This document shows, piece by piece, positions 7,762 to 29,249 of a stretch of DNA of 49,765 nt (positions within the stretch are counted from its first letter, which is position 1; every line of letters starts with the position of its first letter). Both the position numbers and the translations under genes were made by a program. The stretch comes from Escherichia phage_vB_EcoD_Punny, in sequence record OL539444.1, one strand, 5' to 3'. Under the pieces are notes generated by a model. The model was not told where the DNA came from. It saw nothing but the letters and a program-made list of their open reading frames with translations, and ran no database searches.

Positions 7762-7768
7762 TTAATAA

Positions 7769-9395: not shown

Positions 9396-9409
9396 TAAAG
9401 GGGGCTATT

Positions 9410-10072: not shown

Positions 10073-10078
10073 TATTAA

Positions 10079-10102: not shown

Positions 10103-10143
10103 TTTGATGTAATATCACCTCAATATTTAACCACTCAGGAGAA

Positions 10144-10464
10144 ATGACAATGGCTAAAATGAAATTGACTCTTGCCCCGCTTCCAGATTTCAAACTTCCA
10201 GTTAAATTTGTATTGCCGGATGGTAACGAGCAAAAAATTGTGTTTACCGTTAAGCATAAAAAGGCCAGCGAGATTCAAGAGCTTTACCAGAAAGAAGGTA
10301 TTAAAGATCCTGAATTCATCATGAATGTTGCCGTGGGTTGGGATCTGGAGGAAGAATTCAACGAAGAAAACGCGCAACTGTTAGTTGATTATTATCCTGG
10401 CGCGGCGCTGGCTCTTATGGGATCTTATTTAAGTGCGCTGGCAGGGCAACGCGTAAAAAACTAA
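10144..10464 (+). CDS. tail assembly chaperone (G-like)
   Basis: 106 aa ORF upstream of the tape measure gene; ends just after slippery heptamer A_AAA_AAC (10455-10461). Confidence 0.7.
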   Translation: MTMAKMKLTLAPLPDFKLPVKFVLPDGNEQKIVFTVKHKKASEIQELYQKEGIKDPEFIMNVAVGWDLEEEFNEENAQLLVDYYPGAALALMGSYLSALAGQRVKN

Positions 10465-10781
10465 AACGGGCGGTTTATCTGTATTATCAGAAACCGCCGA
10501 CAGATGCAGAATTGCAAGCCGTAGGATTAACCCGCGCAGACTATGAAGGAGAAGATCCGCCAGAGGTCATATTTGATGAAAGTATGATGCAATCATGGGA
10601 TATATTTTGCGCGATGGGTACACAGTGGCGTAGTGCTGGCGCTGGTGCTTACGGTTTTGATTATAATGTTTTGCCTATGTTATTCAGAATCTATAAAATA
10701 GACGATGAAGAAATGGCCTTAAATGACTTGCGCATCATGGAACAAAAAGCACTGGAAATGATGCAAGCAAATAACAAATAA
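10144..10781 (+). CDS. tail assembly chaperone GT-like fusion via -1 programmed frameshift
   Basis: The -1 frame from heptamer 10455-10461 is open into ORF 10512-10781; hairpin GGCGGTTT...AAACCGCC begins 6 nt downstream of the heptamer. Confidence 0.6.
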
Positions 10782-10804
10782 AGCGCCTACGGGCGCTTTT
10801 TTTA
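10782..10804 (+). terminator. rho-independent terminator / attenuator before tape measure gene
   Basis: Stem AGCGCC/GGCGCT, loop TACG, then TTTTTTT. Confidence 0.65.
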
Positions 10805-10818
10805 TGAGGGTAAAATAT

Positions 10819-13728
10819 ATGGCTGAACAATTTGCAGGTTTAACACTTGGCGTGAACGTCGAGCAGTTAAACAAAGCTGTTAAGTCGTTACAGGACTTTA
10901 AAAAAGCCAACGACGAAGCAAAGAAAGGCGTTGAGAGCTTTGTTAACGAGGAAGAAGTTGCAAAGCAAAAGGCTAAACAGTTAGCCGATGAATTAGCGAA
11001 ACAGAGCCGTGAATTTAAGAGAATTCAGGATACAGTTGATCCGACAGCGGCAAAAATGCGCAAGCTGTCACAGGCAGCAAGTGATCTTGATAAGCTATGG
11101 CAAAAAGGGATTGTACCTGATGAAACATTCTTCCAATTAGGGAGCATGTTGGAAACTCAGATCAGTAAATTGGAGCGCAACAAAAAGGCGCTTACGGAAG
11201 AAGGCCGCGCAGCGTTGGAAGAATCACGCGCCAAAGAGAAAGCAGCGGCAGCAGGAAAGAGCTTCCTTGCGGATCTAGAATCACAAGCGGCGGCTCTTGG
11301 AAAAACCAAATCTGAATTACTGGAAATGAAAGCCGCGCAACTTGGCGTAAGTGCTCAGGCCGCGCCATTCATTGCACAGCTTAAAGCGCAAGAGCGCCAG
11401 ATGAAATTAACCGGAATTAGCGCAGGGCAATATAACCAGGCAATGCGAATGCTTCCGGCTCAGATCACTGACGTTGTAACGTCGCTGGCTTCCGGTATGC
11501 CTGTTTGGTTGGTTGCAATCCAGCAGGGTGGACAGATTAAAGATTCTTTCGGCGGTGTTGGTAATACGTTTAAAGTGCTGTTGTCGTTTCTGAATCCGGT
11601 AAACGTTGGCCTTGCCGCATTAGCCGTTTCAATGGGTGCTCTTGTTAAGGCTGGTTATGATGCGTATAAGTCGCAACGTGACTTGCAAGAGGCGTTAGTG
11701 CTGACTGGTGGATATGCTGGCACAAACGGCGCACAGTTTGACAAGATGGCGCAGGATATTAATAACAGCACTGATGCGACCATTGGCAGCATTCGCGGCA
11801 TTGCAACAGAGCTTGCAAAATCTGGAAAATACACCATTGATCAGATTAAAGCCATTACGAAAACTACCGCTCAGTGGTCAACGGTAACGGGTGAATCAAG
11901 CGATAAGATTACTGGTTACTTTGATAAGATTGCTGGCGATCCGGTTAAAGGTCTTGCAGAGCTAAACGAGCAATTCAACTTTTTAAGCGAAGGGCAGTTA
12001 ACTTATATTGCAGACCTTGAGAAAACGAAAGGAAAAACGGAAGCAGTGACGGCGGCGACAAAGTTATTTGCTGATGTTATGGATCAGAGATTAGCTAAAC
12101 TGGCAGACTCCGCAACTCCATTAGAAAAGATGTGGACGAACATTAAAAAATGGGCGTCAGATGCTTGGGGATGGGTTGGAGATCATACGCTGGCGGCTCT
12201 TAACCTGATTATCGACGTTGTAGCCGGAACGGTTGAGCAGGTTAGATACTTGCTTAATCAGGGTGATATTCTCATTGGTGAATTTATTGTGTCGGCAACT
12301 AAGACGATGCAAAAAATCCCAGGTCTTGATAATGTTGGCGATTCTGTAATTTCGCAACAACAGAAGATCATTAATAACGCCAAAGAGAACAACAAGGAGT
12401 TATTAAAATCAATTGCCGAACGTAACGAGCGAGTCAAAAAAGGCGAGCAGGGTTACATTGACATGATGAAAAATCGTGCGGCGGTTGAACAGCAATATGC
12501 TACTAAAACAAAGGAGAATATCAGGAAGGAAGCCGAGGAATTAGCCAAACGCGATAAAAAGCAAAAGGCTGAAAAAGTTAAGGTATCGGCTGGCGATAAG
12601 CTGGAAGAACAATATCAGCGTGATATCCTGGCGTTAGAAACTCAATTAAGAGTTTTGAAAGAGCATAAGACGATCACTGATACCATAAGCCAGCAACGTA
12701 AATCTTTATGGGCTGAACAGGCTAAAATTCAGATTCTGCAAGAAGCCTCAACAAAGCGGCAACTTACTGATGAAGAAAAAAGCATTTTAGCCAACAAAGA
12801 TAAGATCCTAGCGATGGCTGAACAAAAAGCTATTTTAGGAGATCAGATTGTTGCACAAACGCGCCTTAATCAGTTGCAAGATAGCTCAATCAAGTTTATC
12901 CAGCAGCAGAAAGCAGCAACAGAAGCACTAGCCAAAACCAGAGGGTTAAGTGAACGTGAAGCAGCAAGAGCGGCGGAACGTGCAAAGGTTGAGGCTGATT
13001 ATCTTGCCAAAGGAGGCAAGGAAGGAGATCCGCAACTCACCGCAATGATGGATGCATTAGACAATCGCTATAAAGAGGAAGATGCTAAACGTGCTGATTG
13101 GTTGGCTGGCGCTAAAAATGCCTTTGCGGAGTACGGCGAGGAAGCAATGAACATGTATGATAATATCGGCAACATTGCTAGCCAGGCGCTAAACGGCCTA
13201 TCGCAACAAATGGCTGATTTTTTGACTACTGGACAAGCAAACTTCAAAGACTTTGCAAAATCGATCATTAGCCTTATTGTTCAGATGATCACAAAGATGG
13301 TTATCTTCAATAGCATTTCCGGCATGATGGGCGGCTCAACCTGGACGCTTGGAAGCCTTTTAAGCGGTGCTGGTTTTGCTGGCGGCGGTTATACTGGCGA
13401 CGGTGGCAAATATGATCCGGCTGGCGTTGTTCATAAGGGTGAGTTTGTTTTCACCAAAGAGGCAACGCAAAGAATCGGAGCTAAAAACCTGTATCGCATG
13501 ATGCGAGGTTATGCAAACGGCGGTCAAGTAGGAAGCGTGACAACTGGCGGCGCTGGCATCAATCGCGGTGCATCGCAATTTGCATTTGGTGATATCAACG
13601 TTAACATTGACAACGGTCAAGATCCAAAAGGGATGGAAACTGGTATCAAGATGATTTTCACTGAAATGATTCAACGGTCATGCTCGCAAGGTGGCGAGGT
13701 TTATAATTTTGTTCATGGGAGGGCTTAA
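10819..13728 (+). CDS. tail tape measure protein
   Basis: About 970 aa, long coiled-coil N-terminal region, Gly-rich hydrophobic segments near the C-terminus; follows G/GT. ATG 10819 preferred. Confidence 0.85.
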   Translation: MAEQFAGLTLGVNVEQLNKAVKSLQDFKKANDEAKKGVESFVNEEEVAKQKAKQLADELAKQSREFKRIQDTVDPTAAKMRKLSQAASDLDKLWQKGIVPDETFFQLGSMLETQISKLERNKKALTEEGRAALEESRAKEKAAAAGKSFLADLESQAAALGKTKSELLEMKAAQLGVSAQAAPFIAQLKAQERQMKLTGISAGQYNQAMRMLPAQITDVVTSLASGMPVWLVAIQQGGQIKDSFGGVGNTFKVLLSFLNPVNVGLAALAVSMGALVKAGYDAYKSQRDLQEALVLTGGYAGTNGAQFDKMAQDINNSTDATIGSIRGIATELAKSGKYTIDQIKAITKTTAQWSTVTGESSDKITGYFDKIAGDPVKGLAELNEQFNFLSEGQLTYIADLEKTKGKTEAVTAATKLFADVMDQRLAKLADSATPLEKMWTNIKKWASDAWGWVGDHTLAALNLIIDVVAGTVEQVRYLLNQGDILIGEFIVSATKTMQKIPGLDNVGDSVISQQQKIINNAKENNKELLKSIAERNERVKKGEQGYIDMMKNRAAVEQQYATKTKENIRKEAEELAKRDKKQKAEKVKVSAGDKLEEQYQRDILALETQLRVLKEHKTITDTISQQRKSLWAEQAKIQILQEASTKRQLTDEEKSILANKDKILAMAEQKAILGDQIVAQTRLNQLQDSSIKFIQQQKAATEALAKTRGLSEREAARAAERAKVEADYLAKGGKEGDPQLTAMMDALDNRYKEEDAKRADWLAGAKNAFAEYGEEAMNMYDNIGNIASQALNGLSQQMADFLTTGQANFKDFAKSIISLIVQMITKMVIFNSISGMMGGSTWTLGSLLSGAGFAGGGYTGDGGKYDPAGVVHKGEFVFTKEATQRIGAKNLYRMMRGYANGGQVGSVTTGGAGINRGASQFAFGDINVNIDNGQDPKGMETGIKMIFTEMIQRSCSQGGEVYNFVHGRA

Positions 13729-14075
13729 TGTTAGATGAATTTACCTGGTGTACGCAGATTCAGAGCGGCGGCGGTGTAATGACAACCACCAATAACGACA
13801 GGGAAGTTGTTTTTGGTAACGGCTATCGCCAAAAGGCATCTTCTGGATTTAACACGGAAAGGAGGGAGTTTTCTATTGTATATGTTGGCAATGATTATAA
13901 GGCTGTTAAAGCATTTATGACGGATCACAGGTTAAAGCCTTTCTTGTGGAAAACTCCAGACGGTAGTTTTGGGTTGTTTACCGTAAAAGCCGGAACGGTT
14001 GGACTAACGCCAATTAGCCGAACCGCTCAGGAAGTCAAAGCAACTTTTACGGAAGAATTTACATCAATGCGATAA
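13728..14075 (+). CDS. minor tail protein (lambda M-like)
   Basis: 115 aa ORF coupled to the tape measure stop; first gene of an M-L-K-I-J-like order. Confidence 0.5.
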   Translation: MLDEFTWCTQIQSGGGVMTTTNNDREVVFGNGYRQKASSGFNTERREFSIVYVGNDYKAVKAFMTDHRLKPFLWKTPDGSFGLFTVKAGTVGLTPISRTAQEVKATFTEEFTSMR

Positions 14076-14080
14076 ATCAA

Positions 14081-14103
14081 AGCCGCCTTGTGCGGCTTTT
14101 TTA
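14081..14103 (+). terminator. rho-independent terminator
   Basis: Stem AGCCGC/GCGGCT, loop CTTGT, then TTTTTT. Confidence 0.65.
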
Positions 14104-14116
14104 TTGTGTCTATAAT
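14088..14116 (+). promoter_or_regulatory. sigma70-like promoter with -35 inside terminator loop
   Basis: TTGTGC, 17-bp spacer, TATAAT; drives 14142. Confidence 0.45.
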
Positions 14117-14141
14117 GGTGCTTTATTGGAGGGCATAGAAT

Positions 14142-14900
14142 ATGGCTGAAAAACAGATCAAAAAGACTTTTGAAAATTGTCTGCAATCGCTTTTTCCTGG
14201 TGAGATTATTACTCTTATCGAAGTTGACGGCACGAAATTTGGTGCTCAGGTTTACCGATTTCACGCTGAAAATATCGCATACACGCCAGAGGAATTAATG
14301 CAAGCGCGTGAAACTGGAATATTGCCTCCGAAAGATATTAAGTTTCGCGGTGAAATTTACGGGGCGCGTCCTTTTGGCATCACAGGGATCGGATTTACCA
14401 GTAACGGGAAAGCAGAAAAACCACAATTAGCGCTTTCTAATTTAGATAGCCGTGTATCTGCTTTAATCAGATCCTATAATGGCATGATGCAAGCAAAGGT
14501 TACAATATGGGTTACATCGGCTGATTTAATTGATGATGAAGGTAATGTGGAGGACGGCGCATATAGAAAGTTGGTTTATTATATTGAGCGTCCGAATTTT
14601 GTTAATCAGACAGTTGCACGTTTCGAATTAACATCCCCTTATGATATGGATGGAATTATGATCCCGCCGCGACTCACTCAAAGCGTTTGTTATTGGGCGC
14701 AACGCGGATGGTATAGAAGCGGTAAAGGTTGCGGATATAACGGATCAGCAATGTTTGATAAAGACAATAATCCGGTAACAGATCCGAGTAAGGATTATTG
14801 CGCCGGAACGGTAACAGCTTGCAAATTGCGCTTTGGTGAACAAAATGAATTAGACTTTGGCGGTTGTGCTGTTGCTTCACTGTTGAGGAAAAACCAATGA
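14142..14900 (+). CDS. minor tail protein (lambda L-like)
   Basis: 252 aa ORF with Cys-rich C-terminus, in the L position. Confidence 0.5.
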   Translation: MAEKQIKKTFENCLQSLFPGEIITLIEVDGTKFGAQVYRFHAENIAYTPEELMQARETGILPPKDIKFRGEIYGARPFGITGIGFTSNGKAEKPQLALSNLDSRVSALIRSYNGMMQAKVTIWVTSADLIDDEGNVEDGAYRKLVYYIERPNFVNQTVARFELTSPYDMDGIMIPPRLTQSVCYWAQRGWYRSGKGCGYNGSAMFDKDNNPVTDPSKDYCAGTVTACKLRFGEQNELDFGGCAVASLLRKNQ

Positions 14901-15619
14901 TTAATGCAAAAATTAAACTTGAAATTATGCGACACGCTAATGATGTTTATCCTAATGAATGTTGCGGCCTGGTAACTCAAAAGTCGCGCGTTCAGAAATA
15001 TCACCGGATTGATAACGTTAGCAGTGAGCCGGAAAAGCATTTTGAAATGGACGCGATCCAATATGCAGATGTTGAGGATAGCGGCGCGGATATTATCGCC
15101 ATAGTTCACAGCCACACAGGGGAAGGGGCAACCACAATCCCTAGCGCACACGATTTATGCATGTGCGATGAAACTGGTGTTTCATGGATTATCGTGTCTA
15201 TTCCAGAGGGTGACATGCGAATTATAGAGCCTGAATCACGGCCTTTGATTGGTCGCCCATGGTCGCTTGGCGCTTATGATTGTTGGGGGCTGATTATGGC
15301 CTGGCATAAAGAGCAAGGCGTGATCCTGAATGATTTCCGAAAGCCGTATGAATGGTGGAAGCCGGAACATGGTGAAAACCTTTATCAAGATAATTACTTG
15401 AAAGAAGGTTTTATAGAAACAGGAGAGCCACCAAAGCCAGGTGATATGATCATAATGCAGTTGCAAGCGCCAGTATGGAACCACGCAGGAATTTATTTAG
15501 GCAACAATCAACTATTGCATCATGCATTCGGCAAGTTGTCGCGAGTTGATTTATATTCTGGATGGTATCAGGAACACACAACAATGATTTGCAGACATAA
15601 GGATCTGAAAAATGAATAA
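14897..15619 (+). CDS. tail assembly protein (lambda K-like; MPN/JAB + NlpC/P60)
   Basis: HSHTGEG...HDLCMCD JAMM-like motif and a downstream Cys...His (NHAGIYLG) NlpC/P60-like region. ATG overlaps upstream stop. Confidence 0.7.
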   Translation: MINAKIKLEIMRHANDVYPNECCGLVTQKSRVQKYHRIDNVSSEPEKHFEMDAIQYADVEDSGADIIAIVHSHTGEGATTIPSAHDLCMCDETGVSWIIVSIPEGDMRIIEPESRPLIGRPWSLGAYDCWGLIMAWHKEQGVILNDFRKPYEWWKPEHGENLYQDNYLKEGFIETGEPPKPGDMIIMQLQAPVWNHAGIYLGNNQLLHHAFGKLSRVDLYSGWYQEHTTMICRHKDLKNE

Positions 15620-16211
15620 GGTTATAAACGTAAAATTATCAGGCTCATTAGGTCGCCGCTTTGGTGTTTTTCATAAATACGCCGTTGAGAGTTGGCCTGA
15701 ATGCGTAAGGGCATTATCAAGCCAGGTTGAAGGATTCAAAGAATTTATGCAAAGTGAAATCGGATCAAAGATGAAATTTGCAATTTTCGTTGATGGTAAA
15801 AATGTTGGCTTGAATAATGATAGCGCATGGCGTTGCGCTCGCGAGGTTCGAATTGTTCCGGTTCCAACAGGTTCAAAATCTGGTGGTTTATTTCAGGTTG
15901 TTTTGGGTGCTGTTATTATGGTCACTGCGTTTTTCACTGGTGGTGCATCGCTGGCGGCTATGGGTGCTTTTTCATCGGCTGCATTTATGATGGGTGGCGC
16001 AATGGCTCTTGGCGGAGTAATGCAGATGATTAGCCCACAACAAGGAGGAATGAGAATGGAGAGCCAGAGCGCAGCAAATAAACCATCATATGCGTTTGGT
16101 GGTGCTGTTAATACTACGGCGGCAGGTTATCCGGTATGTTTGCCATATGGTTATAGAACGGTTGGAGGCGCTGTATTCAGTGCTGGCTCATACGCAGAAG
16201 ATAAACTTTAA
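15612..16211 (+). CDS. tail assembly protein (lambda I-like)
   Basis: 199 aa with Gly/Ala-rich hydrophobic C-terminal half; in the I position. Confidence 0.5.
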   Translation: MNKVINVKLSGSLGRRFGVFHKYAVESWPECVRALSSQVEGFKEFMQSEIGSKMKFAIFVDGKNVGLNNDSAWRCAREVRIVPVPTGSKSGGLFQVVLGAVIMVTAFFTGGASLAAMGAFSSAAFMMGGAMALGGVMQMISPQQGGMRMESQSAANKPSYAFGGAVNTTAAGYPVCLPYGYRTVGGAVFSAGSYAEDKL

Positions 16212-16218
16212 TTATGTA

Positions 16219-16242
16219 AACCCGCCGTTGCGCGGGTTTTTT
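16219..16242 (+). terminator. rho-independent terminator
   Basis: Stem AACCCGC/GCGGGTT then TTTTTT; nearly identical to 17-40. Confidence 0.6.
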
Positions 16243-16256
16243 GTTACATGTACAAT
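16228..16256 (+). promoter_or_regulatory. sigma70-like promoter with -35 inside terminator loop
   Basis: TTGCGC, 17-bp spacer, TACAAT; drives 16293. Confidence 0.4.
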
Positions 16257-16292
16257 GGCAGCACGTTTAAATAGCACAAAAGGTTAAAAGCT

Positions 16293-19200
16293 ATGATCAA
16301 AAATATGATAACTGGCAGTAAGGGCGGTTCTTCAAAGCCTCATACACCTGTTGAAATGGAAGATAACCTAATTTCAATTAACAGGATCAGAATTCTTTTA
16401 GCCGTTTCTGATGGTGAAGTTGATCCAGACTTTTCATTGAAAGATTTATATTTTGATGACGTTCCGGTTATGAATCAGGATGGTTCACTAAACTTTCAGA
16501 ATGTTAAAGCAGAATTCAGACCAGGGACGCAAACGCAGGATTATATTCAGGGGTTCACTGATACAGCCAGCGAAATTACTGTTGCTCGCGATCTGACGGC
16601 TGCAACTCCTTATATTATTTCCGTGACTAATAAAAACCTTTCCGCGATCCGTATTAAAATTTTAATGCCGCGAGGGTTTACGCAGGAGGATAACGGAGAT
16701 TTAACAGGCGTTCGCGTTGAATATGCTGTTGATATGGCTGTTGATGGTGCTGAATATAAAGAGGTTTTGTATGATGTAATTGAAGGTAAAACAATGAGCG
16801 GTTACGACAGAAGCCGCCGAATTGATTTACCTGATTTCAATGAGCGTGTTTTATTGCGCGTCCGTCGCCTGACAGATAGCACGTCAGCAAGGGTAACGGA
16901 TCTGATTAAAATGCAAAGCTATGCTGAAGTTGTAGACGCTAAATTTCGTTACCCACTGACTGGTTTAGTATATGTTGAGTTTGACAGCGAATTATTCCCT
17001 AATGCGTTGCCGAATATCAGCATTAAGAAAAAATGGAAAATCATTAATGTTCCGTCAAATTATGATCCTATTTCACGCACTTACTCAGGGTCATGGGATG
17101 GAACCTGGAAAAAGGCATGGAGTAATAACCCTGCTTTTGTTCTGTATGATTTGATTACCAATCAGCGTTACGGACTCGATCAAAGAGAATTAGGAATCGC
17201 GCTTGATAAATGGAGCATTTACGAATGTGCGCAGTATTGCGATCAGATGGTTCCAGACGGTAAAGGCGGAACAGAGCCGCGCTATCTTTGCGACGTTGTG
17301 ATCCAGAGCCAGGTAGAAGCGTATCAGCTTGTGCGTGATATTTGTTCAATCTTTCGAGGAATGAGTTTTTGGAACGGTGAGAGCCTTTCAATTGTGATCG
17401 ATAAGCCGCGCGATGCGTCATACATCTTTACTAATGACAACGTGGTTAATGGTGAGTTTACTTACACGTTTGCCAGCGAGAAAAGCATGTACACGCAATG
17501 TAACGTGACTTTCGACGACGAACAAAACATGTATCAACAGGACGTTGAAGGGGTTTTTGAAACAGAGGCGGCATTACGCTTTGGATATAACAGCACGTCA
17601 ATAACTGCTATCGGTTGCACACGACGCAGCGAGGCTAATCGCCGTGGGCGCTGGATTCTGAAAACCAACGTCAAGAGCACAACAGTAAACTTTGCTACTG
17701 GCCTGGAAGGTATGATCCCAACGGTAGGCGATGTAATTGTTGTTTCGGATAACTTCTGGTCAAGCGCTTTGACGCTGAATCTATCAGGTCGATTGATGGA
17801 GGTTAACGGGTTGCAGGTGTTCACGCCGTTTAAGGTTGACGCAAGAGCGGGTGATCGCATTCTGGTAAATAAGCCTGATGGTAAGCCAGTTGGTCGAACC
17901 ATTGCGCGTGTGAGCGATGACGGCAAAACGCTAACGCTAAACACAACGTTTGGCTTTGACGTTCAGCCTGACACCATTTTTGCAATCGAGCGAACCGATA
18001 TTGCACAGCAACGATATGTTGTAACTGGAATCACTAAGGGTGACGGTGATGAAGAATTTACCTACAACATAACGGCTGTTGAATACGATCCGAACAAATA
18101 CGATGAAATTGATTATGGCGTAAACATTGATGACCGTCCGACTTCAATCGTGCAGCCTGACATTTTGCCAGCACCGCAAAACGTCAAGATCGAATCTTAT
18201 TCGCGAGTTGTCCAGGGCGCGAGCGTGGAAACAATGCATGTTTCATGGGATAAGGTTGAATATGCAAGCCTTTATGAAATGCAGTGGAGAAAAGACAATG
18301 GCAACTGGAACAACACGCCGCGCACAGCCAACAAGGAAACGGAAGTTGAAGGAATTTATGCTGGTAACTATCACGTAAGGGTTAGATCTGTTGCAGCGAA
18401 TGGTTCAGCGTCTGGATGGTCTGCAATCGTAAGCGCAGGATTAACCGGAAAAGTTGGAGAGCCGGAAAAGCCAATTAACCTTACTGCGTCTGACAATGAA
18501 GTTTTCGGAATTCGCGTAAAATGGGGTATGCCAGAAGGAAGCGGAGACACGGCCTATATAGAGTTGCATCAAGCGCCAAACGGTGCTGATGGTCATCCTA
18601 TAGTTGACGAAGCAACGCTATTAACGCTTGTTCCGTTCCCGCAATATGAGTATTGGCATTCAATACTGCCAGCGGGTCATGTTGTCTGGTACAAGGCAAG
18701 GGCAGTTGACAAAATCGGTAACGTTTCTGATTGGACTGATTTTGTGCGCGGCATGGCTTCCGACGATACGAGCATTATCACGGATCATATTAAGGTCGAT
18801 ATTGAAAATTCTGATGGCTATAAGTGGTTGCAGGAAAACGCAATAAAGGCCAATGATAAGATCCACAGCACAGCGGAATCAGTGATTGAAAACGCATTAG
18901 CTAATGATAAAGATGTTCGACGTATGCGAGTTGAAAACGGAAAGCGTAAAGCGGAGTTCTTGCAATCGCTGAAACTCATTGCAGACGAAACAGAAGCTAG
19001 GGTAACGCAGGTCACTCAAATGAGTGCGCAATTTGACGAGAAATTAACGGCTCAAAATAGCGAATTGAGAGAGGTAATTGCTAACAGCACTGAAACCATT
19101 AGCCAAAGGATTGATCAGCTTACAGCTACGTTTGAGAGCGAAATTGATGGTGTTAAGCAGGATATCAAAGCACAGATAACTGATGTTAACCAGGCAATCA

Positions 19201-20069
19201 CCAATGAAGCGGAAGCGCGAGCGTCAGCGGATAGGGCGTTATCAACTCAAATTGGTGATACCCAATCAGCGGTTAACCAGAAACTTGATTCATGGGTTAA
19301 CGGAACAAGCGTTGGTGCGATGTACGGCGTTAAGTTGGGGATCAGGTATAACGGGCAGGAATATAGCGCAGGTATGGCGCTTTCTCTTGTCGCTGATGGT
19401 AGCGGAGTTAAATCACAATTCCTGTTTGATGCTGGACGATTTGCGATCATCAATAATGCTCAAAGCGGAGGTTTTACACTACCGTTTGTTGTTGAGAATA
19501 ATCAGGTGTTTATCAACAGCTTACTTGTGAAAAATGGCTCTATTGGTAACGCTCAGATTGCGGATCAGATTAACTCTAACAACTGGAGCAGCGGCGCGGC
19601 TGGATGGATGATTAATAAGAATGGTTATGCTGAATTTAACCAGATAACGGTAAGGGGTACAGTGTACGCAAACGCCGGATCATTCACTGGTAACGTTTAC
19701 GCTACTGATGGTTGGTTTAGGGGTACTGTTTACGCTGAAAAAATCGAGGGCGACGTTGCAAAGGCTGTTGTGCTTGGGTTTAACGGATCGGTTCACATTC
19801 CGGCAGTAAACTACAACAGACACCTTGTGATCCCTTATGTTGGTATTCACGGGTACACATATTCAGGTGGTACATGGGGCGGCGGTACTGTTTGGGTTAA
19901 TTCAACATATGGCGGTCGCCTTGCTAACGTTCAGGCAACTGCAATGCATGGCGGATCAAGTGGTTATGTTCTGTTGCCAGCGGGTAACGCAACTACGCTT
20001 TCATATGGTGGAAATCTAAACCACGCAAACGCAGTACCGATCTTAACAGTTCTGCTATTCAAAGCATAA
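16293..20069 (+). CDS. host specificity / tip attachment protein (lambda J-like)
   Basis: 1258 aa ORF in the J position, with fibronectin-III-like segments in the middle and a Gly-rich C-terminal domain. Confidence 0.85.
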   Translation: MIKNMITGSKGGSSKPHTPVEMEDNLISINRIRILLAVSDGEVDPDFSLKDLYFDDVPVMNQDGSLNFQNVKAEFRPGTQTQDYIQGFTDTASEITVARDLTAATPYIISVTNKNLSAIRIKILMPRGFTQEDNGDLTGVRVEYAVDMAVDGAEYKEVLYDVIEGKTMSGYDRSRRIDLPDFNERVLLRVRRLTDSTSARVTDLIKMQSYAEVVDAKFRYPLTGLVYVEFDSELFPNALPNISIKKKWKIINVPSNYDPISRTYSGSWDGTWKKAWSNNPAFVLYDLITNQRYGLDQRELGIALDKWSIYECAQYCDQMVPDGKGGTEPRYLCDVVIQSQVEAYQLVRDICSIFRGMSFWNGESLSIVIDKPRDASYIFTNDNVVNGEFTYTFASEKSMYTQCNVTFDDEQNMYQQDVEGVFETEAALRFGYNSTSITAIGCTRRSEANRRGRWILKTNVKSTTVNFATGLEGMIPTVGDVIVVSDNFWSSALTLNLSGRLMEVNGLQVFTPFKVDARAGDRILVNKPDGKPVGRTIARVSDDGKTLTLNTTFGFDVQPDTIFAIERTDIAQQRYVVTGITKGDGDEEFTYNITAVEYDPNKYDEIDYGVNIDDRPTSIVQPDILPAPQNVKIESYSRVVQGASVETMHVSWDKVEYASLYEMQWRKDNGNWNNTPRTANKETEVEGIYAGNYHVRVRSVAANGSASGWSAIVSAGLTGKVGEPEKPINLTASDNEVFGIRVKWGMPEGSGDTAYIELHQAPNGADGHPIVDEATLLTLVPFPQYEYWHSILPAGHVVWYKARAVDKIGNVSDWTDFVRGMASDDTSIITDHIKVDIENSDGYKWLQENAIKANDKIHSTAESVIENALANDKDVRRMRVENGKRKAEFLQSLKLIADETEARVTQVTQMSAQFDEKLTAQNSELREVIANSTETISQRIDQLTATFESEIDGVKQDIKAQITDVNQAITNEAEARASADRALSTQIGDTQSAVNQKLDSWVNGTSVGAMYGVKLGIRYNGQEYSAGMALSLVADGSGVKSQFLFDAGRFAIINNAQSGGFTLPFVVENNQVFINSLLVKNGSIGNAQIADQINSNNWSSGAAGWMINKNGYAEFNQITVRGTVYANAGSFTGNVYATDGWFRGTVYAEKIEGDVAKAVVLGFNGSVHIPAVNYNRHLVIPYVGIHGYTYSGGTWGGGTVWVNSTYGGRLANVQATAMHGGSSGYVLLPAGNATTLSYGGNLNHANAVPILTVLLFKA

Positions 20070-20082
20070 AAGGAGGTAAATC

Positions 20083-20117
20083 AATGCCCTGGCTTAACGG
20101 TCGGGGCATTTTGTTTT
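20083..20117 (+). terminator. terminator-like hairpin after J gene
   Basis: AATGCCC/GGGCATT stem with a long loop, then T-rich run. Confidence 0.4.
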
Positions 20118-20170
20118 CTTTTGTTCTACGGTGTTCACAACTTAATCCGGCGTAAAATAATAAACGTTTG

Positions 20171-20245
20171 CACAACAAAAAGAACAAATAAAATATCTAT
20201 ATAATACATACACTTAAAGAATAATTATTATTATATATCTATATT
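20171..20245. repeat. conserved AT-rich intergenic element, copy A
   Basis: AAAATATCTATATAATACAT and ATAATTATTATTATATATCTATATT are identical to 40685-40704 and 40716-40740; followed by a GT-rich TGATTGATGG tract. Confidence 0.7.
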
Positions 20246-20472
20246 TGTATTCTTATTGTTTCTATTGTTCTCTATGGTTTGTGGTGGTTGTGTGTTTTGT
20301 ATTGATTGATGGTTATATATCACATGGTATGTATTTATATATGGTATGCAGCGTAAATGCGTGAACAATGGAACGCAAAAACAACAATTAGTAAAATCAT
20401 AAACTTACGATGTGATTTTGTTTAAACGCTAGTTGCAAACGTATGCAAGACAAAAAGAACGCTTAAATGGTA

Positions 20473-20500
20473 TTGACTACATGAAACATTCACATATAAT
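20473..20500 (+). promoter_or_regulatory. sigma70-like promoter for recombination module
   Basis: TTGACT, 16-bp spacer, TATAAT; about 28 nt upstream of ATG 20529. Confidence 0.6.
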
Positions 20501-20528
20501 GCAGACATACCAACGAGAGGATGACTAA

Positions 20529-21584
20529 ATGAGCGATTTTAAAGTTTACACCTTTGACCAGTTAACCAACGGTGAATATCACGATCCGAAAGGCTGGGCG
20601 GCTGAATACGTTAGCGGTTCAAGCCTGGCAGAAATCTTTGCAAGTTGTCCGGCAGCATGGAAATACAGACCACGCGAGGAAAGCAAAGCGCTTGTTTTCG
20701 GTACGCAGTCACACACAAACTTCCAGAGTAGTGAGCTATTCGCAAAAGAGTACCGCAGAGCGCCAGCGCCGGAAGATTATGAAAACCTGATTACGAGCCA
20801 GGCAGCATTGGCAGCGAAATTAAAATCTTTTGGCCTGACTGGTACAAACGGGAAAACGTATCCAGATCTGATTAAGATGATGGTTGATTGTGGTGAGGAT
20901 CTAAATGTGCAATGGCTAATTGAAATGATCGCAGAAAGCCAGGCGCGAGCGGATAACGTTGAATTGGTTCCGGCTAAAGATTACGACGCTTGCGTTACCA
21001 TGCGCCGCGTACTGGAAAGCATACCTGAACACAACGCTTGCATGAATAGCCCAACAGCACAACGCGAGCTATCAATTTTCGGCACTATAAAAGGCGTGAA
21101 AGTCAAAGTAAGGCTTGACCATGTTGATATTTGCAAGGATGTGCTTGCAACGGTGATTTCCGGCTATGACGGTGAAGGGAATCCGGTTTATGAAACCACG
21201 CGATTTGATGAAGCGATTGTGATCACTGATTACAAAACAACGTCAAGCGCTAACCCAACGGAGTTTTCACGGCTGGCATTTAATCATGGTTACTACTTAA
21301 AAATGGCATTGCAGCACGACCTATTCAAGAAAGCGTATCCAGAAGAAAAACGACCTGTTGTTGTTCGACTTCTGGCGCAAGAAAAGAAAGAGCCGTTTTT
21401 ACCTATCGCATACCGCATGACAGACGAGCAATTGAAGATCGGACGTCTGCAATACATGAGCGTTATCAACCAGTTTGCAGAATGCCAGGCTAATGACGTT
21501 TGGCCTTCATATGCAAACGGTGAGCCGGAAATTGACCTGCAAACGCCTGATTGGGTACGCAGACAATACAAAGGTTTTTTATAA
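20529..21584 (+). CDS. PD-(D/E)XK family nuclease (recombination exonuclease, putative)
   Basis: VRLDHVD ... IVITDYKTT resembles a D...D/E-x-K nuclease core; adjacent to Erf-like and SSB genes. Confidence 0.5.
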   Translation: MSDFKVYTFDQLTNGEYHDPKGWAAEYVSGSSLAEIFASCPAAWKYRPREESKALVFGTQSHTNFQSSELFAKEYRRAPAPEDYENLITSQAALAAKLKSFGLTGTNGKTYPDLIKMMVDCGEDLNVQWLIEMIAESQARADNVELVPAKDYDACVTMRRVLESIPEHNACMNSPTAQRELSIFGTIKGVKVKVRLDHVDICKDVLATVISGYDGEGNPVYETTRFDEAIVITDYKTTSSANPTEFSRLAFNHGYYLKMALQHDLFKKAYPEEKRPVVVRLLAQEKKEPFLPIAYRMTDEQLKIGRLQYMSVINQFAECQANDVWPSYANGEPEIDLQTPDWVRRQYKGFL

Positions 21585-21627
21585 ATAGCACTTTTTGCTA
21601 AAACAGCCATTCGATGCGTGGTATACT
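21585..21627 (+). promoter_or_regulatory. dyad-motif promoter unit P1
   Basis: ATAGCACTTTTTGCTAAAAC, 17-nt gap, TGgTATACT in the loop of GATGCGTG/CACGCATC; upstream stop abuts the motif. Confidence 0.55.
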
Positions 21628-21658
21628 ACACGCATCAACCAACAAGAGAGGAAATAAA

Positions 21659-21950
21659 AATGGAACAGCAATTCAATGAACAAGACACTCAAGACGTGCG
21701 CGATCATGTAGGCGGATTTGTAAACGCATTAGGCATTATGCAACGCCAGTTCTTACGAGTAATTGATCCAAGCGAATCACCGGAAACTATTGAATACGTT
21801 CGCAAGGTTGCATATTCGATTGATAACGTTGTGTTAACAGTTCTTCAAATGGAGAATAACGAAGAACACCGCAAGATGATTAATCAGGCAAGTGAAATCA
21901 TGATCCAGAATTTGATTGATTATCACAACGAGAACAAAGAAAAGCATTAA
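21659..21950 (+). CDS. hypothetical protein
   Basis: 97 aa ORF with GAGAGGA RBS, 31 nt downstream of the P1 -10. Confidence 0.5.
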
Positions 21951-21996
21951 TTAACACGGCGGCGCAAGCCGCCATTATTAAACCGGAGTCAATGAA

Positions 21997-22659
21997 ATGA
22001 AATTTTCCGATCAAAACGCAAACGTAATTAAGGCATTGTTTGAGGCGCGTCAGTTATTCACAAAAGTAAAAAAGGATAAGCAAAACACGCACCTTAAAAA
22101 CAAATATGCAACTCTTGACAGCGTTCTTGATGCTATTATGCCTGGCCTTACTGATAAGGGTTTATTCCTTACTCAAGATCAGAAAGTTGGCGAAGATTTG
22201 AAATCAATGACGGTTTTAACTCGCTTCATTCACGTTGAATCAAATGAATGGGTTGAATATAGTTTCACGTTGCCAATGCAGAAATTAGATCCACAAGGCG
22301 GCGGCTCAACAAACAGCTATGCGAGACGTTATGCTCTTTGCACGGCTCTTGGCCTGGCAACGGCTGACGATGACGCAAATCTTGCCACCAAAAACGCGCA
22401 GGATTGGAAAAAAGATCTTGATGCTTGCGATAACCTTACAGACTTGCAAGAAACGTTTAAAACGGCTTACAAGCAATCTGACGCGGCTAACAGGAGAATC
22501 ATTAAAGAGCATTACGACAAGCTAAAAGCAAAAATGGAAATCGGAAAGGCTCGCGGTTTTAATCCGGCAGCGCCAGCGGCTAATGTTGCGAAGAAGGAAA
22601 ATGTTGAAAACGAGCCGCAACAGGAAGTAAAATCTCAATCTATCACAGACTTTGAATAA
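21997..22659 (+). CDS. Erf-like single-strand annealing protein
   Basis: N-terminal region (KNKYATLDSVLDAIMP...) resembles the ERF family; adjacent to SSB. Confidence 0.55.
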   Translation: MKFSDQNANVIKALFEARQLFTKVKKDKQNTHLKNKYATLDSVLDAIMPGLTDKGLFLTQDQKVGEDLKSMTVLTRFIHVESNEWVEYSFTLPMQKLDPQGGGSTNSYARRYALCTALGLATADDDANLATKNAQDWKKDLDACDNLTDLQETFKTAYKQSDAANRRIIKEHYDKLKAKMEIGKARGFNPAAPAANVAKKENVENEPQQEVKSQSITDFE

Positions 22660-22697
22660 ATTAACGTGGGGCGGTAACGCCCCAATAAGGATTAAGA

Positions 22698-23123
22698 ATG
22701 CACGTAATCACCGGAGAAATTCGCAAAGAGCCATTTGTAAAGCAAGGCGCAAACGGCACATTATACATCGTTGAGCTTTCGGAGTCATTTAAAGATCGTG
22801 AAGGTAATCGACAATACACCAATTACAAATTCTTCTTTAATGCTAAAAGCGACGGCATGAATAATTGGTATCGTGAAGCATTTCAGCAGGGTAAAGTTAT
22901 TTCTGTATCATGCGATCAGTTACGCATTGATAGCCAGGAATACAACGGGCAGATTTATAACACATTGACGGCGGCGGGCTTTCCTAATCTTTTATTCAGT
23001 CAACGCGGAGAAGGGCAGGCGCCACAACAGCAGCAACCTCGACAGCAACAACAATCGCCACGCCAGCAAGCGCCTCAAAACAACGAGCCGCCTATGGATT
23101 TTGATGATGATATCCCATTCTGA
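22698..23123 (+). CDS. ssb: single-stranded DNA-binding protein
   Basis: OB-fold-like N-terminus, Gln/Pro-rich linker and acidic C-terminal tail DFDDDIPF typical of SSB. Confidence 0.8.
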   Translation: MHVITGEIRKEPFVKQGANGTLYIVELSESFKDREGNRQYTNYKFFFNAKSDGMNNWYREAFQQGKVISVSCDQLRIDSQEYNGQIYNTLTAAGFPNLLFSQRGEGQAPQQQQPRQQQQSPRQQAPQNNEPPMDFDDDIPF

Positions 23124-26577: not shown

Positions 26578-27186
26578 TTAGCAATCAGTGCTATCGACGG
26601 AAATCACAACGCGTTTCTTCTGATTGGCTTCCTTTGCTTTGCGCCGTTCTTCTTTCGCCTTGTCGCGTTCAGCTTTGCGCCGCGCTTTCTCCTTCTCGCG
26701 TTCTTCTGGAGGCATAGACCGTAACGGATCGTAAGGCCGGACAAATCCGCGAGCCTCCGCTTCTTCTTTTGTGACAAATCGCATGAGCTTTCTGTTGCTG
26801 CAACGATTCTCTAATGGCTTGCCGTTGTTGTCAAAGCGCAAATCTGGACGGCAATATGAAGCGCGGAAACCGTTAAAACCTTTGCGGCGGTAATCCTTTT
26901 GGATCAGTTCAGCGCCTTTAGCTGAAATCATGCCGCGCTCTTTCCATCCCCACACTGTTTTAAGGTTAACGCCAATCTCACGCGCCAACGCAGCACAGCC
27001 GCCATAAGCGCTAACCACTTCATCAAGCCTAGCTTTTAATCCTGCCCTTACTTCTTCCTTTAGTACCAGATAACCGCTAACAGGTGCGCGGCGCTTCCGG
27101 TCTTTACCACGCCTTACGCCGTTGTTACCATTGATTGTGCGTTTGTCGATTTCGCCCGTTGAGGCCGCAATTTTGATTTCGCTCAT
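26578..27186 (-). CDS. HTH DNA-binding protein with basic C-terminal tail
   Basis: GGCAALAREIGVNLKTVWGWK resembles a Cro/YdaS-type helix-turn-helix; Lys/Arg/Glu-rich C-terminus. Trimmed to ATG 27186 (GGTGA RBS) because the longer ORF translates the dyad motif. Confidence 0.45.
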   Translation of the reverse strand: MSEIKIAASTGEIDKRTINGNNGVRRGKDRKRRAPVSGYLVLKEEVRAGLKARLDEVVSAYGGCAALAREIGVNLKTVWGWKERGMISAKGAELIQKDYRRKGFNGFRASYCRPDLRFDNNGKPLENRCSNRKLMRFVTKEEAEARGFVRPYDPLRSMPPEEREKEKARRKAERDKAKEERRKAKEANQKKRVVISVDSTDC

Positions 27187-27196
27187 ATTTTCACCT

Positions 27197-27239
27197 ATAG
27201 CACTTTTTGCTAAAACTATTGAGTAAGTTTGTGTATGAT
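27197..27239 (+). promoter_or_regulatory. dyad-motif promoter unit P2
   Basis: ATAGCACTTTTTGCTAAAAC, 17-nt gap, TATGAT; no clear hairpin; drives 27275. Confidence 0.45.
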
Positions 27240-27274
27240 ATGGTGCAAATGGCATTTAGTCAAAAGGATAAGTA

Positions 27275-28162
27275 ATGATTCCTAACATTGAAAAACAGAT
27301 TGAAGAACTTGGAGCGGAAAAGATAAAGGCAATACAAAAACGCTTCACAGTTGGTGAAATTGTGCCTTACGAATATCAATGCGTTGCATACGCTGAAATC
27401 GCAAAGCGCTTGAGTAAGTATGTTGATCCGTTTTTCGTAAAAGCGGCGGTATCGGCTGGTAAAACAATCATCTTTGCTATGGTTGCGGCTCAGTGCCGTA
27501 AAATGGGGTTGAAAGCGTTATTTCTGGCGCGTCAATCTGAAATTGTGGATCAGGATTCAAAAGAGATTAGCGCCTTTGGTGTTCCGAATTCCGTTTATTG
27601 CGCTGGCCTGAATACCAAAAGCGCTTATTTCCCGATTGTTGTCGGATCGGAAGGCACTGTAATTGGTGGATTGAATAAAGCGTTGGGTGATTACGTCCCA
27701 CAAGTTTTAGGTATAGACGAATGTCATCAAGTCAACTGGAATGATATTGTTGAAGCCGAGGAAAACGGCGAAAGCATAGAGCAAATGATGACACCGAAAG
27801 GTGAACCAGTTGAAGGGAATCCGTTGCTGATTGGTTCAGGCCGCGCACAATACACCATTATCATTGCAGAAATGCGCCGCCGTTGCCTTGAGACTTACGG
27901 TCATCAGTTGCGCATATTTGGAATGACAGGATCGGAATATCGCGGAATTGAGCCGATACTTGTCGAAGATAAAAGAATTCCTGGGTTTTGGCGTGAGCAG
28001 ATCACAAACATTGATACTGATTACCTGGTAAAATTTGGTTCAGTTGTTCCCACTTATTTTGGCAATGTTGGTGATTTGGGTTACGACTTATCAGAATTTA
28101 CGCCAGTGAATGAATTTGGCGTTGCTGATTATGACCAGAAGCAATATAAAGGCCATGAGTGA
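27275..28162 (+). CDS. helicase ATPase domain protein (SF2-like, Walker A and DECH)
   Basis: AAVSAGKT Walker A and GIDECHQ motif II. Confidence 0.6.
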   Translation: MIPNIEKQIEELGAEKIKAIQKRFTVGEIVPYEYQCVAYAEIAKRLSKYVDPFFVKAAVSAGKTIIFAMVAAQCRKMGLKALFLARQSEIVDQDSKEISAFGVPNSVYCAGLNTKSAYFPIVVGSEGTVIGGLNKALGDYVPQVLGIDECHQVNWNDIVEAEENGESIEQMMTPKGEPVEGNPLLIGSGRAQYTIIIAEMRRRCLETYGHQLRIFGMTGSEYRGIEPILVEDKRIPGFWREQITNIDTDYLVKFGSVVPTYFGNVGDLGYDLSEFTPVNEFGVADYDQKQYKGHE

Positions 28163-29249
28163 CAAGATTCACCAATCAGGAACCATGACGCAGAAAATAA
28201 TGCAGATGGTTCACGAGGTGATGAAAAACCGCTTGTGCGCTCTTGTTACTTGCGCTGACGAAAGGCACTGCAAAGAGGCGGCGGCGGCGCTTCCGCCTGG
28301 CACGAAATATCACATTATCACCGGAAAAACTGGAGAGAAACAGCGGCGCTTATGGCTTGAGGATGCATATGAAGGGCGCGTTAAATACATCTTCCAGGTT
28401 CAGGCGCTAACAACTGGCGTGAACGTTCCTCCGTGGGATACTTCTGTTATTTTGCGCAAGATCGGAAGCCTGACGCTATTAACTCAGCTTTTGGGGCGCG
28501 GTATGCGTCAATTAAAAACTTACCATAAAGAAGTATTGGGAATGCACAAAACAGATCATCTTGTTTTGGACTTTTCCGGCACGATGTTTGAAATGGGTAA
28601 TTTGTATTTCGATCCAATGCTTGAGCAAGCGCAATTCCAGTTGCGTAAATCGCAGGATAAAGATCCGAAATTTTGCCCGATTTGCGGCACAGAAAATTCA
28701 TTCTATGCTCGCCGTTGCATTAATGAAGATGAAAATGGAAATCGTTGTGAGCACTTTTGGACGTTTCAAACGTGTGAGGATCAGATTGATGACCACACAA
28801 AGAAAGTTATTGTAAAAGGTTGCGGCGCAAAAAATGACGTTGCAGCGCGTGTATGCCGTTGCTGTAATGTTCAGTTACGCGATCCAAATGATAATTTATC
28901 CGGCAAGATGTACCGCAAAAATGATTGGTGCGACGTGTTAGATTTTAATGTGACGCTGACAAAAAACCAGGCTGGCGTAATATTCTGCTACACGTTGCGC
29001 GATAGTGGCGGCGTAGAATTCAGGGCATACGAAAAATATTTCCCTGAATCAGAACACAAGATATGCAAAACGCTTTGGACAAAGGCTGTTAGAACACACG
29101 TTATAGATCGCCAGGCCGCAAATTATATGATCACTTGCCGCAACGCAATTAAGATCATGAGTTATGCTGGACAAATATTGCCACCAAAGCGCGTTACGCA
29201 TCGCAAGAACACAAAGAAAGAAGATTTAATAGCACAGAAGGAATTTTAA
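28155..29249 (+). CDS. helicase C-terminal domain protein with zinc ribbons
   Basis: QLLGRGMRQ motif VI-like, then CPICG...RRC and CRCCN Cys clusters. ATG overlaps upstream stop in ATGAGTGA. Confidence 0.5.
   Translation: MSDKIHQSGTMTQKIMQMVHEVMKNRLCALVTCADERHCKEAAAALPPGTKYHIITGKTGEKQRRLWLEDAYEGRVKYIFQVQALTTGVNVPPWDTSVILRKIGSLTLLTQLLGRGMRQLKTYHKEVLGMHKTDHLVLDFSGTMFEMGNLYFDPMLEQAQFQLRKSQDKDPKFCPICGTENSFYARRCINEDENGNRCEHFWTFQTCEDQIDDHTKKVIVKGCGAKNDVAARVCRCCNVQLRDPNDNLSGKMYRKNDWCDVLDFNVTLTKNQAGVIFCYTLRDSGGVEFRAYEKYFPESEHKICKTLWTKAVRTHVIDRQAANYMITCRNAIKIMSYAGQILPPKRVTHRKNTKKEDLIAQKEF

Follow-up and report, generated by a model that had tools for sequence, protein, structure and literature searches.

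Paired AT-rich elements in two intergenic regions of Drexlerviridae genomes as candidate replication origins

The window analysed here, the whole 49,765-nucleotide stretch of Escherichia phage vB_EcoD_Punny DNA (OL539444.1), is an almost complete Tlsvirus genome (Drexlerviridae, Tempevirinae) with the gene order given in Table 1. Two of its intergenic regions, one upstream of recE and the other in the divergent early region, each carry one copy of an AT-rich element, here copy A and copy B respectively, and intergenic gaps comparable to these two occur nowhere else in the window. The regions surrounding them (19900-20700 and 40300-41100) are 99.9-100% identical to those of Citrobacter phages vB_CfrD_ZerotoHero, BlueShadow and Reinasaurus, with 100% identity to ZerotoHero over the 801 bases compared, and about 95% identical to those of phage TLS.

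Table 1. Genes, promoters and sequence features in and around the two element-bearing regions (window coordinates).
Feature	Position	Strand	Basis or remark
Terminase to tail fibre J	75-20069	+	gene order
Whole cassette A: TTGTTC/GTGTTCAC arms (20121-20138), core, GT tract, second AT patch, GTGAACAATGGAAC (20361-20374), recE promoter	20111-20528	+
Copy A core: A-rich tract, box 1, spacer, box 2	20171-20245	+	alignment to copy B, profile HMM
A-rich left tract, AACAAAAAGAACAAAT	20174-20189	+	consensus AACAAAA..AAC
Box 1, copy A, CTATATAATA	20197-20206	+	alignments; TATAAT at 20200-20205
Box 2, copy A, ATATATCTATATT	20233-20245	+	21-element alignment; family consensus TTATnTATATATnTAT
T/G-rich, C-poor right tract, beginning TTGTTTC-N3-TTGTTC	20246-20343	+	G+T excess
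Canonical sigma-70 promoter of the recE-erf operon, TTGACT-16-TATAAT	20473-20500	+	downstream end of cassette A, outside the core; TLS orthologue P51
recE, erf, ssb	20529-23123	+	gene order
Tail fibre, primase, HTH regulator	after ssb	-	gene order
Helicase, methylase, exonuclease, lysis genes	after the minus-strand tail fibre/primase/HTH block		gene order
Leftward block including DUF3987 helicase	before the rightward early genes		gene order
Two tandem 14-bp palindromes	40377-40404		between leftward promoter and copy B; none at copy A
Three-GATC cluster	40441-40468		between leftward promoter and copy B; none at copy A
GATTTGATT repeats	40478-40535		between leftward promoter and copy B; none at copy A
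Whole cassette B, this lineage	40604-41018	+	left arm and core homologous to A; right of ~40745 largely replaced
Copy B core, order and orientation as copy A	40666-40740	+	alignment, profile HMM
Box 1, copy B, CTATATAATA	40692-40701	+	alignments; TATAAT at 40695-40700
Box 2, copy B	40728-40740	+	alignment, 10-mer position
Rightward early operon, canonical sigma-70 promoter: TG followed by TTGACG-16-TAAGAT	40957-40984	+	TLS equivalent P01
Rightward early genes	from 41019	+	gene order

The first-pass annotation had reported that two blocks are identical in the two copies, 20190-20209 with 40685-40704 (AAAATATCTATATAATACAT) and 20221-20245 with 40716-40740 (ATAATTATTATTATATATCTATATT), that each copy contains a TATAAT and has a CACAACA on its 5' side (20171-20177 and 40667-40673), and that both lie about 300 bp upstream of the first gene of a rightward operon. 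We confirmed all of these observations, with the copies ending 284 and 279 bp before the ATGs at 20529 and 41019. A GT-rich tract containing TGATTGATG, which had been described downstream of both copies, does follow copy A (at ~20300), whereas the corresponding string near copy B is found about 190 bp upstream of it (40476-40484), among pac-proximal repeats. No exact direct repeat in the window is longer than the shared 25-mer; in 30 second-order Markov simulations the longest repeats measured 14-19 nt. Only four instances of the 10-mer ATATCTATAT exist in the 49.8 kb, all of them inside the two elements (two per copy, 42 nt apart), and the second 10-mer of copy A, 42 nt after the first, is evidence for box 2. 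A profile HMM built from elements of other phages, with no window-like or T1 sequences included, matches the window exactly twice, at 20162-20279 (E 5e-12) and 40654-40771 (E 7.5e-9), and in T1 gives weak matches to the two orthologous sites and nowhere else.

Homology between A and B extends well beyond these 75 nt. In the window it begins about 70 nt further to the left, and the copy-B regions of Stevie and TLS align with cassette A over its full length, that is, across the entire ~430-nt intergenic region up to the sigma-70 promoter. Stevie-/TLS-type similarity to the window breaks off at ~40603. What is duplicated is a non-coding cassette of ~430 bp whose parts follow one another in a constant order. 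It opens with TGTTC arms (TTTTGTTC..GTGTTCAC..CCGGCGTA) and an A-rich AACAAAAAGAAC; its middle consists of CTATATAATA, an A-rich spacer, a TTATATAT box, TTGTTTC-N-TTGTTC (TTGTT-N5-TGTT) and a ~100-nt G+T-rich tract of the GTGGTGG type; and its right part contains a second AT patch, GCG.AAAT.CGTGAACA...GAAC, AAAATCAT..ACTTA..TTTTGT, ACAAAAAGAAC and the canonical sigma-70 promoter. Cassette A also holds the only TTGTTC cluster of the window (four sites, oriented + - + -), with five TGTTC against about one expected.

Alignments identify which parts of the cassette are conserved. CTATATAATA is the longest invariant block in a five-sequence alignment of A and B cassettes. Among 21 elements from 13 genomes, T1 included, the consensus reads AACAAAA..AAC / CTATATAATA / A-rich spacer / TTA.TTAT.TATATATAT.TAT / T.TTGTT.....TGTT, with box 1 conserved to at least 80% or 60% and TGTT-N5-TGTT to at least 80%. 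Read on the opposite strand, the TTGTT-type motif of the right side gives the consensus of the left tract, and the AAAAAGAAC part of the left tract ends 14 nt before TATAAT, a spacing that is equal in copy A of the window, TLS-B and Stevie-B. On the right, the G+T excess of 0.54 over 20244-20343 is tied for the highest among all 100-nt segments of the genome, and a G+T-rich right flank was present in every one of the 26 elements tested (mean excess 0.43 vs a genome mean of 0.008, sd 0.127), with a mean GC skew of +0.39. The element is polar, as the right flank alone is skewed and the left side is not its mirror image; confinement of the skew to one flank rules out a symmetric AC-to-GT skew switch of the bidirectional-origin type. 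Both copies are oriented in the same direction as their downstream operon.

The elements are also the weakest duplexes of the genome. The least stable 60-bp segment in the window is 20186-20245 (dG -55.6 kcal/mol) and the second least stable is 40688-40747 (-55.8 kcal/mol), compared with -65.9 for the next-weakest site and a genome mean of -80.9 (sd 4.8). At 90% and 88% A+T over 60 bp, the cores are the most AT-rich segments of the genome, so that the easily unwound AT-rich region looked for in iteron-type origins is present in both. The orthologous sites of T1 likewise hold the top two ranks for low stability, and in 20 of 20 paired genomes the element is the weakest segment of the locus at both positions. 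In the minimum free energy fold of the single strand, the left arm, rich in A, pairs with the T-rich right one. In a search for single-stranded hairpins or a cruciform, folds were no better than those of shuffled sequences (z -1.2 to +0.35).

Loci from IMG/VR (44 flanking recE and 52 flanking the helicase), GenBank records and the window supplied the sequences from which these 20 genomes were paired. All 20 Drexlerviridae genomes carry the element at both positions, ahead of recE as well as within the divergent early region. The first-pass annotation had proposed comparison with related phages, absence from relatives counting against the elements; they proved to be conserved family-wide. Around the conserved core, each lineage has short flanking repeats of its own, in inverted orientation. 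In Tempevirinae the repeat is TGTTC(T)/GAACA (4-7 copies vs 0.1-0.7 expected); around T1-A it is TGTAAC, present seven times vs 0.2 expected in the orientation ++-[core]++-+, the only such cluster of the T1 genome; in other lineages it is GTAATC (8 vs 0.13 expected in one of them) or TATACG. The flanks of T1-B carry a different repeat, CGATTAAC. All of these are just 5-7 nt long and, around copy B of the window, weakly represented if at all.

Within a genome, the two copies resemble each other more than they resemble elements of other genomes (similarity 46 vs 37.6 between genomes, sd 8.7), which suggests that one lineage-specific factor acts on both. The positions at which copy A of the ZerotoHero lineage differs from its CF1 and TLS counterparts are exactly those that it has in common with copy B. 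This pattern points to short-patch gene conversion between copies A and B, which would account for the exact block of 25 nt.

Across the 78 GenBank records that match, the element carries no annotation beyond a handful of dubious "hypothetical proteins", and the T1 record has none at the orthologous sites. No plasmid homologues of the cassette were found. The element is not described in the 2024 TLS paper (PMC11447400), in the T1-like taxonomy paper or in the literature on T1-like origins and transcript starts, a survey outside whose scope lay the 2004 T1 genome paper; in the literature, we found no transcript 5'-end data for Drexlerviridae phages. It is of a familiar kind, namely an AT-rich origin-like or promoter-like control element, and appears to be undescribed for Drexlerviridae.

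Both downstream operons have their own sigma-70 promoters adjoining the genes (Table 1), and these begin 228 and 217 bp past the ends of the elements. With the -35 hexamers about 260-270 bp away, the element is far outside the position of an UP element (-40 to -60), and a role as UP element of the downstream operons is ruled out. The suggestion of the first-pass annotation that the elements are strong promoters or UP elements of the two operons is thus not supported in the form given. The core does contain an exact TATAAT in both copies, conserved in most lineages, as expected of a -10, but the sequence at the -35 position is AAAAAG and CTA precedes the -10, such that both copies lack a -35 at 16-18 bp and a TGn extension. 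A promoter consensus scan found none in the core that is common to both copies. The other promoters of the genome fall into two classes, either canonical sigma-70 or a 21-nt repeat (aaATAGCACnnnTTGnTAAAA) followed by an extended -10; the 21-nt repeat has 19 copies, each directly upstream of a gene.

The anatomy of the cassette, with the weakest duplexes of the genome set among inverted short repeats, is that of an unwinding element and is best fitted by a replication signal, which the first-pass annotation had also raised. As judged from sequence, each copy may be the DNA-unwinding core of a transcription-coupled, replication-origin-like cassette, which would give the genome two origins, here named oriA and oriB; we favour this reading while granting it somewhat less than an even chance. 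Several lines of evidence bear on it. A strong early sigma-70 promoter lies 260-270 bp beyond each core and fires away from it, and copy B, as well as copy A of T1 and of Hanrivervirus, is located between divergent promoters. According to the twin-domain model, promoters that fire outward pump negative supercoils into the region behind them. A G+T-rich composition with positive GC skew has been linked to R-loop-prone, transcription-primed origins such as those of ColE1 and T4 (oriF/oriG), and SPP1, with oriL and oriR, and P4, with ori and crr, provide precedents for two similar cis elements in one genome. The phage has genes for a primase with homology to the P4 alpha primase domain (E 2e-14), for two helicases and for an HTH protein (26578-27252, minus strand), none of which could be linked to the flanking repeats. 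For TLS, the 2024 reannotation reports that no origin was recognised (PMC11447400). A phage with its own P4-alpha-type primase and helicases, a relative in which no origin was found and the lack of any comparable gap together favour the origin reading.

In the mechanism we propose, early transcription leaving the cassette would generate negative supercoils within it, and the 60-100 bp core, with 84-90% A+T, would melt before any other segment. A putative initiator protein would bind the flanking TGTTC/GAACA sites (TGTAAC in T1); alternatively or additionally, an RNA might start at the conserved TATAAT and hybridise over the GC-skewed tract. Either the bound protein or the RNA hybrid would stabilise the bubble, at which the P4-alpha-type phage primase and the helicases could be loaded. 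The complete proposal, that these are the T1-family origins, with polar transcription-activated unwinding, a start at TATAAT, an 84-90% A+T core, an R-loop-prone tract, lineage-specific initiator sites and two copies acting as a pair and kept matched by gene conversion, is more tentative still, and we regard it as plausible at somewhat longer reach than the general reading. Searches for further parts of such a system were negative. We found no homologue of the C-terminal DNA-binding domain of P4 alpha (Pox_D5) by BLASTP or tblastn, nor with Pfam among ten window proteins; the DUF3987 helicase has no sequence match in the PDB, and an AlphaFold model of the helicase C-terminus, of low confidence (pLDDT 63), gave no significant match with Foldseek. 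Inspection by eye revealed no convincing DnaA boxes.

Other observations count against an origin. T1-type phages may rely heavily on recombination-dependent replication, and the element lies away from the replication genes. The shortness of the flanking repeats, their poor showing around copy B of the window and the different repeat at T1-B also weigh against it. AT-richness and a conserved TATAAT are also promoter-like, and A-B homology that reaches the sigma-70 promoter suits a transcriptional control region at least equally well. The main rival reading, possible though somewhat less likely, makes the element a promoter or control region of the recE and early operons that is non-canonical and lacks a -35, with CTATATAATA serving as the -10 of a second, upstream promoter. 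In its detailed form, about which we are just as hesitant, such a promoter would need an activator or a modified host RNA polymerase, in the manner of T4 middle promoters with their factor box at -30, would have its operators or activator sites in the flanking repeats, and would be followed by a leader, the C-poor GT tract, onto which Rho could not load. The TATAAT-containing CTATATAATA is indeed the longest block invariant across copies and lineages, in an element that is polar and whose orientation always matches the downstream operon, and the conserved cassette takes in the sigma-70 promoter. AAAAAGAAC keeps its fixed distance of 14 nt 5' of TATAAT in several lineages and copies, and a copy of CAAAAAGAAC also occurs 12 nt upstream of the recE -35. 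In TLS, only three canonical sigma-70 promoters were found (P01, P51 and P57; PMC11447400), and P01 and P51 carry the cassette. However, the third sigma-70 promoter in the window (27235-27263, minus strand) has no such cassette, the element fits neither of the two promoter classes of the genome, and the lack of a -35, of TGn and of a shared core promoter in the consensus scan argues in the same direction. Moreover, 60-100 bp at 84-90% A+T far exceeds what a promoter needs, and neither a sigma factor nor a MotA/AsiA-like factor is known in the family (PMC11447400). The promoter and origin readings need not be exclusive of each other, given the example of T4. There, the origins are middle promoters.

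The remaining explanations are less likely, and a small remainder of probability is assigned to no reading. The first-pass annotation had also considered a packaging signal, which is conceivable for copy B alone, about 110-200 bp inside the left end; copy A is far from every mapped end. The element would then be a terS recognition site that partners the cleavage site in pacR-like fashion, copy A being a second site or a vestige, and we consider this quite unlikely. The left end placed in TLS (position 1 at ~window 40480), T1 (core at T1 205-300) and GS71-type phages (~40547) has copy B ~110-200 bp to its right. The TLS and T1 records open at the mapped pac end, ~190-205 bp left of the copy-B core, the GS71-type starts were checked with PhageTerm, and the cut positions are known at restriction-map or PhageTerm resolution; the LL5 record opens at the element itself (~window 40655). 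Bent AT-rich DNA is found in known pac and cos sites. Against this, copy A is 20 kb from any mapped end, T1 and TLS yield a single pac fragment (PMC11447400), the pac-proximal GATC cluster and GATTTGATT repeats are not found at copy A, and the element is conserved at both places within a promoter-containing cassette. Since the pac-side features are confined to copy B, packaging at best explains that copy. It is improbable, though less so, that the element is an architectural or topological site, bendable and meltable, that binds IHF, Fis or H-NS or absorbs supercoils and thereby tunes or insulates the early promoters while starting neither RNA nor DNA. The lowest duplex stability of the genome and the location between divergent promoters (copy B and T1 copy A) would suit such a site, as would the IHF core consensus (WATCAANNNNTTR), which 16 of 40 elements carry without mismatch at a fixed place between boxes 1 and 2, vs 1.25 expected from shuffles. 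Yet this consensus is missing from copy A of the window, even with one mismatch allowed, and from T1, and copy B has one-mismatch IHF sites only, including TTTCAATGTATTA on the minus strand in the spacer; an IHF site as a universal feature is thereby ruled out for the window and T1. Generic AT-richness would also leave the sequence conservation of CTATATAATA and TTGTT-N5-TGTT, and the polarity, unexplained. Finally, conserved non-coding sequence with a -10-like box on its 5' side might encode a structured non-coding RNA or a small protein, which we judge to be highly improbable. Rfam returned no matches at the gathering threshold in the window and chance-level ones at E<=1, 11 diverse right flanks gave no consensus structure in RNAalifold, and neither single-sequence minimum free energies nor the single-stranded DNA folds were better than those of shuffles, results that effectively reject a structured RNA; the open reading frames are of at most 57 aa, mostly with TTG starts, and indicate no coding potential.

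An origin-like cassette of this kind can be compared with several known systems. Phage P4 also has two separated cis elements per genome (ori and crr), which are bound by the alpha primase-helicase and in which AT-rich DNA adjoins short repeats, oriented either way and spaced by roughly one helical turn. Its type-1 repeat TGTTCACC/GGTGAACA can be set beside the Tlsvirus arms (G)TGTTCAC and GTGAACA (20132-20138; 20361-20367) and CGTGAACACGTGAACAG of TLS-B; the resemblance of GTGTTCAC/GTGAACA to the P4 iteron TGTTCACC is striking, and may be coincidence. Unlike P4, the phage has neither the iteron-binding C-terminal domain of alpha (Pox_D5) nor an SF3 helicase, its helicase being of the DUF3987 type; the repeats are fewer and shorter, becoming TGTAAC in T1; and the CTATATAATA / TTATATAT core has no counterpart in the P4 ori and crr stretches compared. 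Membership of the P4 ori/crr class is not claimed, given that only two TGTTCAC 7-mers flank copy A and none copy B, that the nine present genome-wide are unclustered and that the alpha C-terminal domain is absent. With T4 oriF/oriG, the primary origin of T7 and ColE1 RNA II, the cassette shares a -10-like box, an easily unwound AT-rich segment, a GC-skewed non-template tract and strong promoters nearby, but here the putative promoter has no -35 or known phage factor and the strong promoters are downstream, pointing away. SPP1 oriL/oriR and lambda-type origins similarly have an AT-rich unwinding region beside repeated protein-binding sites, in SPP1 as two distant copies; there, however, the origin occupies or adjoins the initiator gene and its iterons are clear, at 18-20 bp, in contrast to the repeats of 5-7 nt in intergenic early control regions seen here. 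Early promoters of T5 and T7 with UP elements also combine AT-rich DNA and an exact TATAAT upstream of early operons, but have a good -35 and their UP element at -40 to -60, whereas the present element lacks a -35 and lies ~260-270 bp from the real promoters. The 21-nt repeats of TLS and T1 are likewise repeated, intergenic and found in the same phages, and share with the element a ACAAAAAG-like string, but differ from it in sequence and number (19 copies vs two), and the AT-rich element goes unmentioned in the TLS paper (PMC11447400).

On the sequence evidence, the two elements are the best candidates for the replication origins of the family, with an unusual promoter nearly as likely. Drexlerviridae, which are also candidates for therapy, rank with the most common coliphages, and T1 is a member of the classical set of seven T phages. 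A family-wide, two-copy non-coding element with a precise consensus and a distinct physical property, the weakest duplexes of the genome, makes both the origin of T1 and the control of its early units directly testable, and offers genome engineers two regions to leave undisturbed, or to exploit.

Promoters in the window are of two kinds. The 21-nt repeat ATAGCACnnnTTGnTAAAA, already known from the TLS paper (PMC11447400), occurs at 19 sites, each copy being followed after 22–24 nt by an extended -10 (TGnTATAGT or TGGCATAAT); a -35 is absent at all 19. At most copies an inverted repeat holds the -10 in its loop or 3' arm, and the stems vary in sequence from copy to copy while their complementarity is kept. 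To judge from their sequence, these sites look like overlapping modules in which a hairpin or terminator is combined with a promoter. The other kind is canonical sigma-70, and the third such promoter is predicted to serve the operon encoding the HTH regulator and primase; the AT-rich cassette, the ~430-bp region that surrounds each copy of the element, is absent there. This promoter overlaps a rightward 21-nt-repeat promoter, the divergent gap being very short.

Features of the window with their coordinates, strands and sequences
Feature	Position	Strand	Sequence or remark
Third canonical sigma-70 promoter	27235-27263	-	TTGACT-17-TATCAT; TLS P57 equivalent
21-nt repeat, example sites	21585, 29655, 31004, 41994, 45209, 46329, 47695	+	ATAGCACnnnTTGnTAAAA
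21-nt repeat, example sites	40008, 40367	-	ATAGCACnnnTTGnTAAAA
Inverted-repeat stem pairs at 21-nt repeats			AAGGCACA/TGTGCCTT, AAGGCCA/TGGCCTT, GGCCTT/AAGGCC, GGGGTA/TACCCC
Two tandem 14-bp palindromes	40377-40404		AGACCGATTGGTCT and AGACCGTTTGGTCT
GATC cluster and G/T repeats	40441-40535		3 GATC in 28 nt, then GATTTGATT-type repeats
Stretches matching copy B in copy A of the ZerotoHero lineage			GAATAATT and ATATCTATATT

Left of copy B of the element, a leftward 21-nt-repeat promoter (40348-40368) adjoins the two tandem palindromes, which are kept in both Stevie and TLS and resemble an operator for a dimeric DNA-binding protein. The GATC cluster lies farther right, with the contexts CGATCAC, CGATCAC and TGATCAT, and its hexamers are reminiscent of the pac site of phage P1, which is under methylation control. 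The record of TLS was opened at its mapped pac site ('AGATTT') and begins at the position corresponding to ~40480 of the window.

The cassette arms carry TGTTCAC/GTGAACA, found in the window at 20132-20138 (+) and 20361-20367 (-) and in the TLS locus L006 at ~403-420; the P4 type-1 origin repeat TGTTCACC opens with these seven bases. The P4 alpha primase domain has a homologue in the phage primase (25593-26516, -; E 2e-14); no counterpart of the P4 alpha DNA-binding domain was found. In Hanrivervirus-type elements, box 1 and box 2 are separated by a spacer with a perfect match to the IHF core consensus (AATCAATAAGTTA or AATCAATAGTTTA), placed equally in both copies (L063, L101, L081, L100, L080 and L078, with the paired copy-A loci L020-L031 and L051). 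Of the 40 elements, 16 have such a core where 1.25 would be expected; neither the window nor T1 has one in its elements.

The SF2 helicase, a single 672-aa gene in T1, is represented in the window by two overlapping ORFs (27275-28162, ResIII/DEAD; 28110-29249, Helicase_C), a split that could be due either to a sequencing error or to a frameshift, which may or may not be programmed. 'Hypothetical protein' genes annotated in GenBank into or across the AT-rich element (L003, herni gp31; L005, grams gp09; Sephi301i, H67) are probably spurious.

About half of the Tlsvirus records, including Stevie, Sazh, TLS and Mishu, match the window only as far as ~40603, beyond which they have another copy-B cassette and other first early genes; this mosaic breakpoint therefore marks two alternative right-hand modules joined just left of the element. 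Within 20218-20245, copy A of the ZerotoHero lineage departs from that of its nearest relatives, CF1 and TLS (L009, L027), exactly where it is identical to copy B, a pattern that suggests short-patch gene conversion between copies A and B in this lineage.
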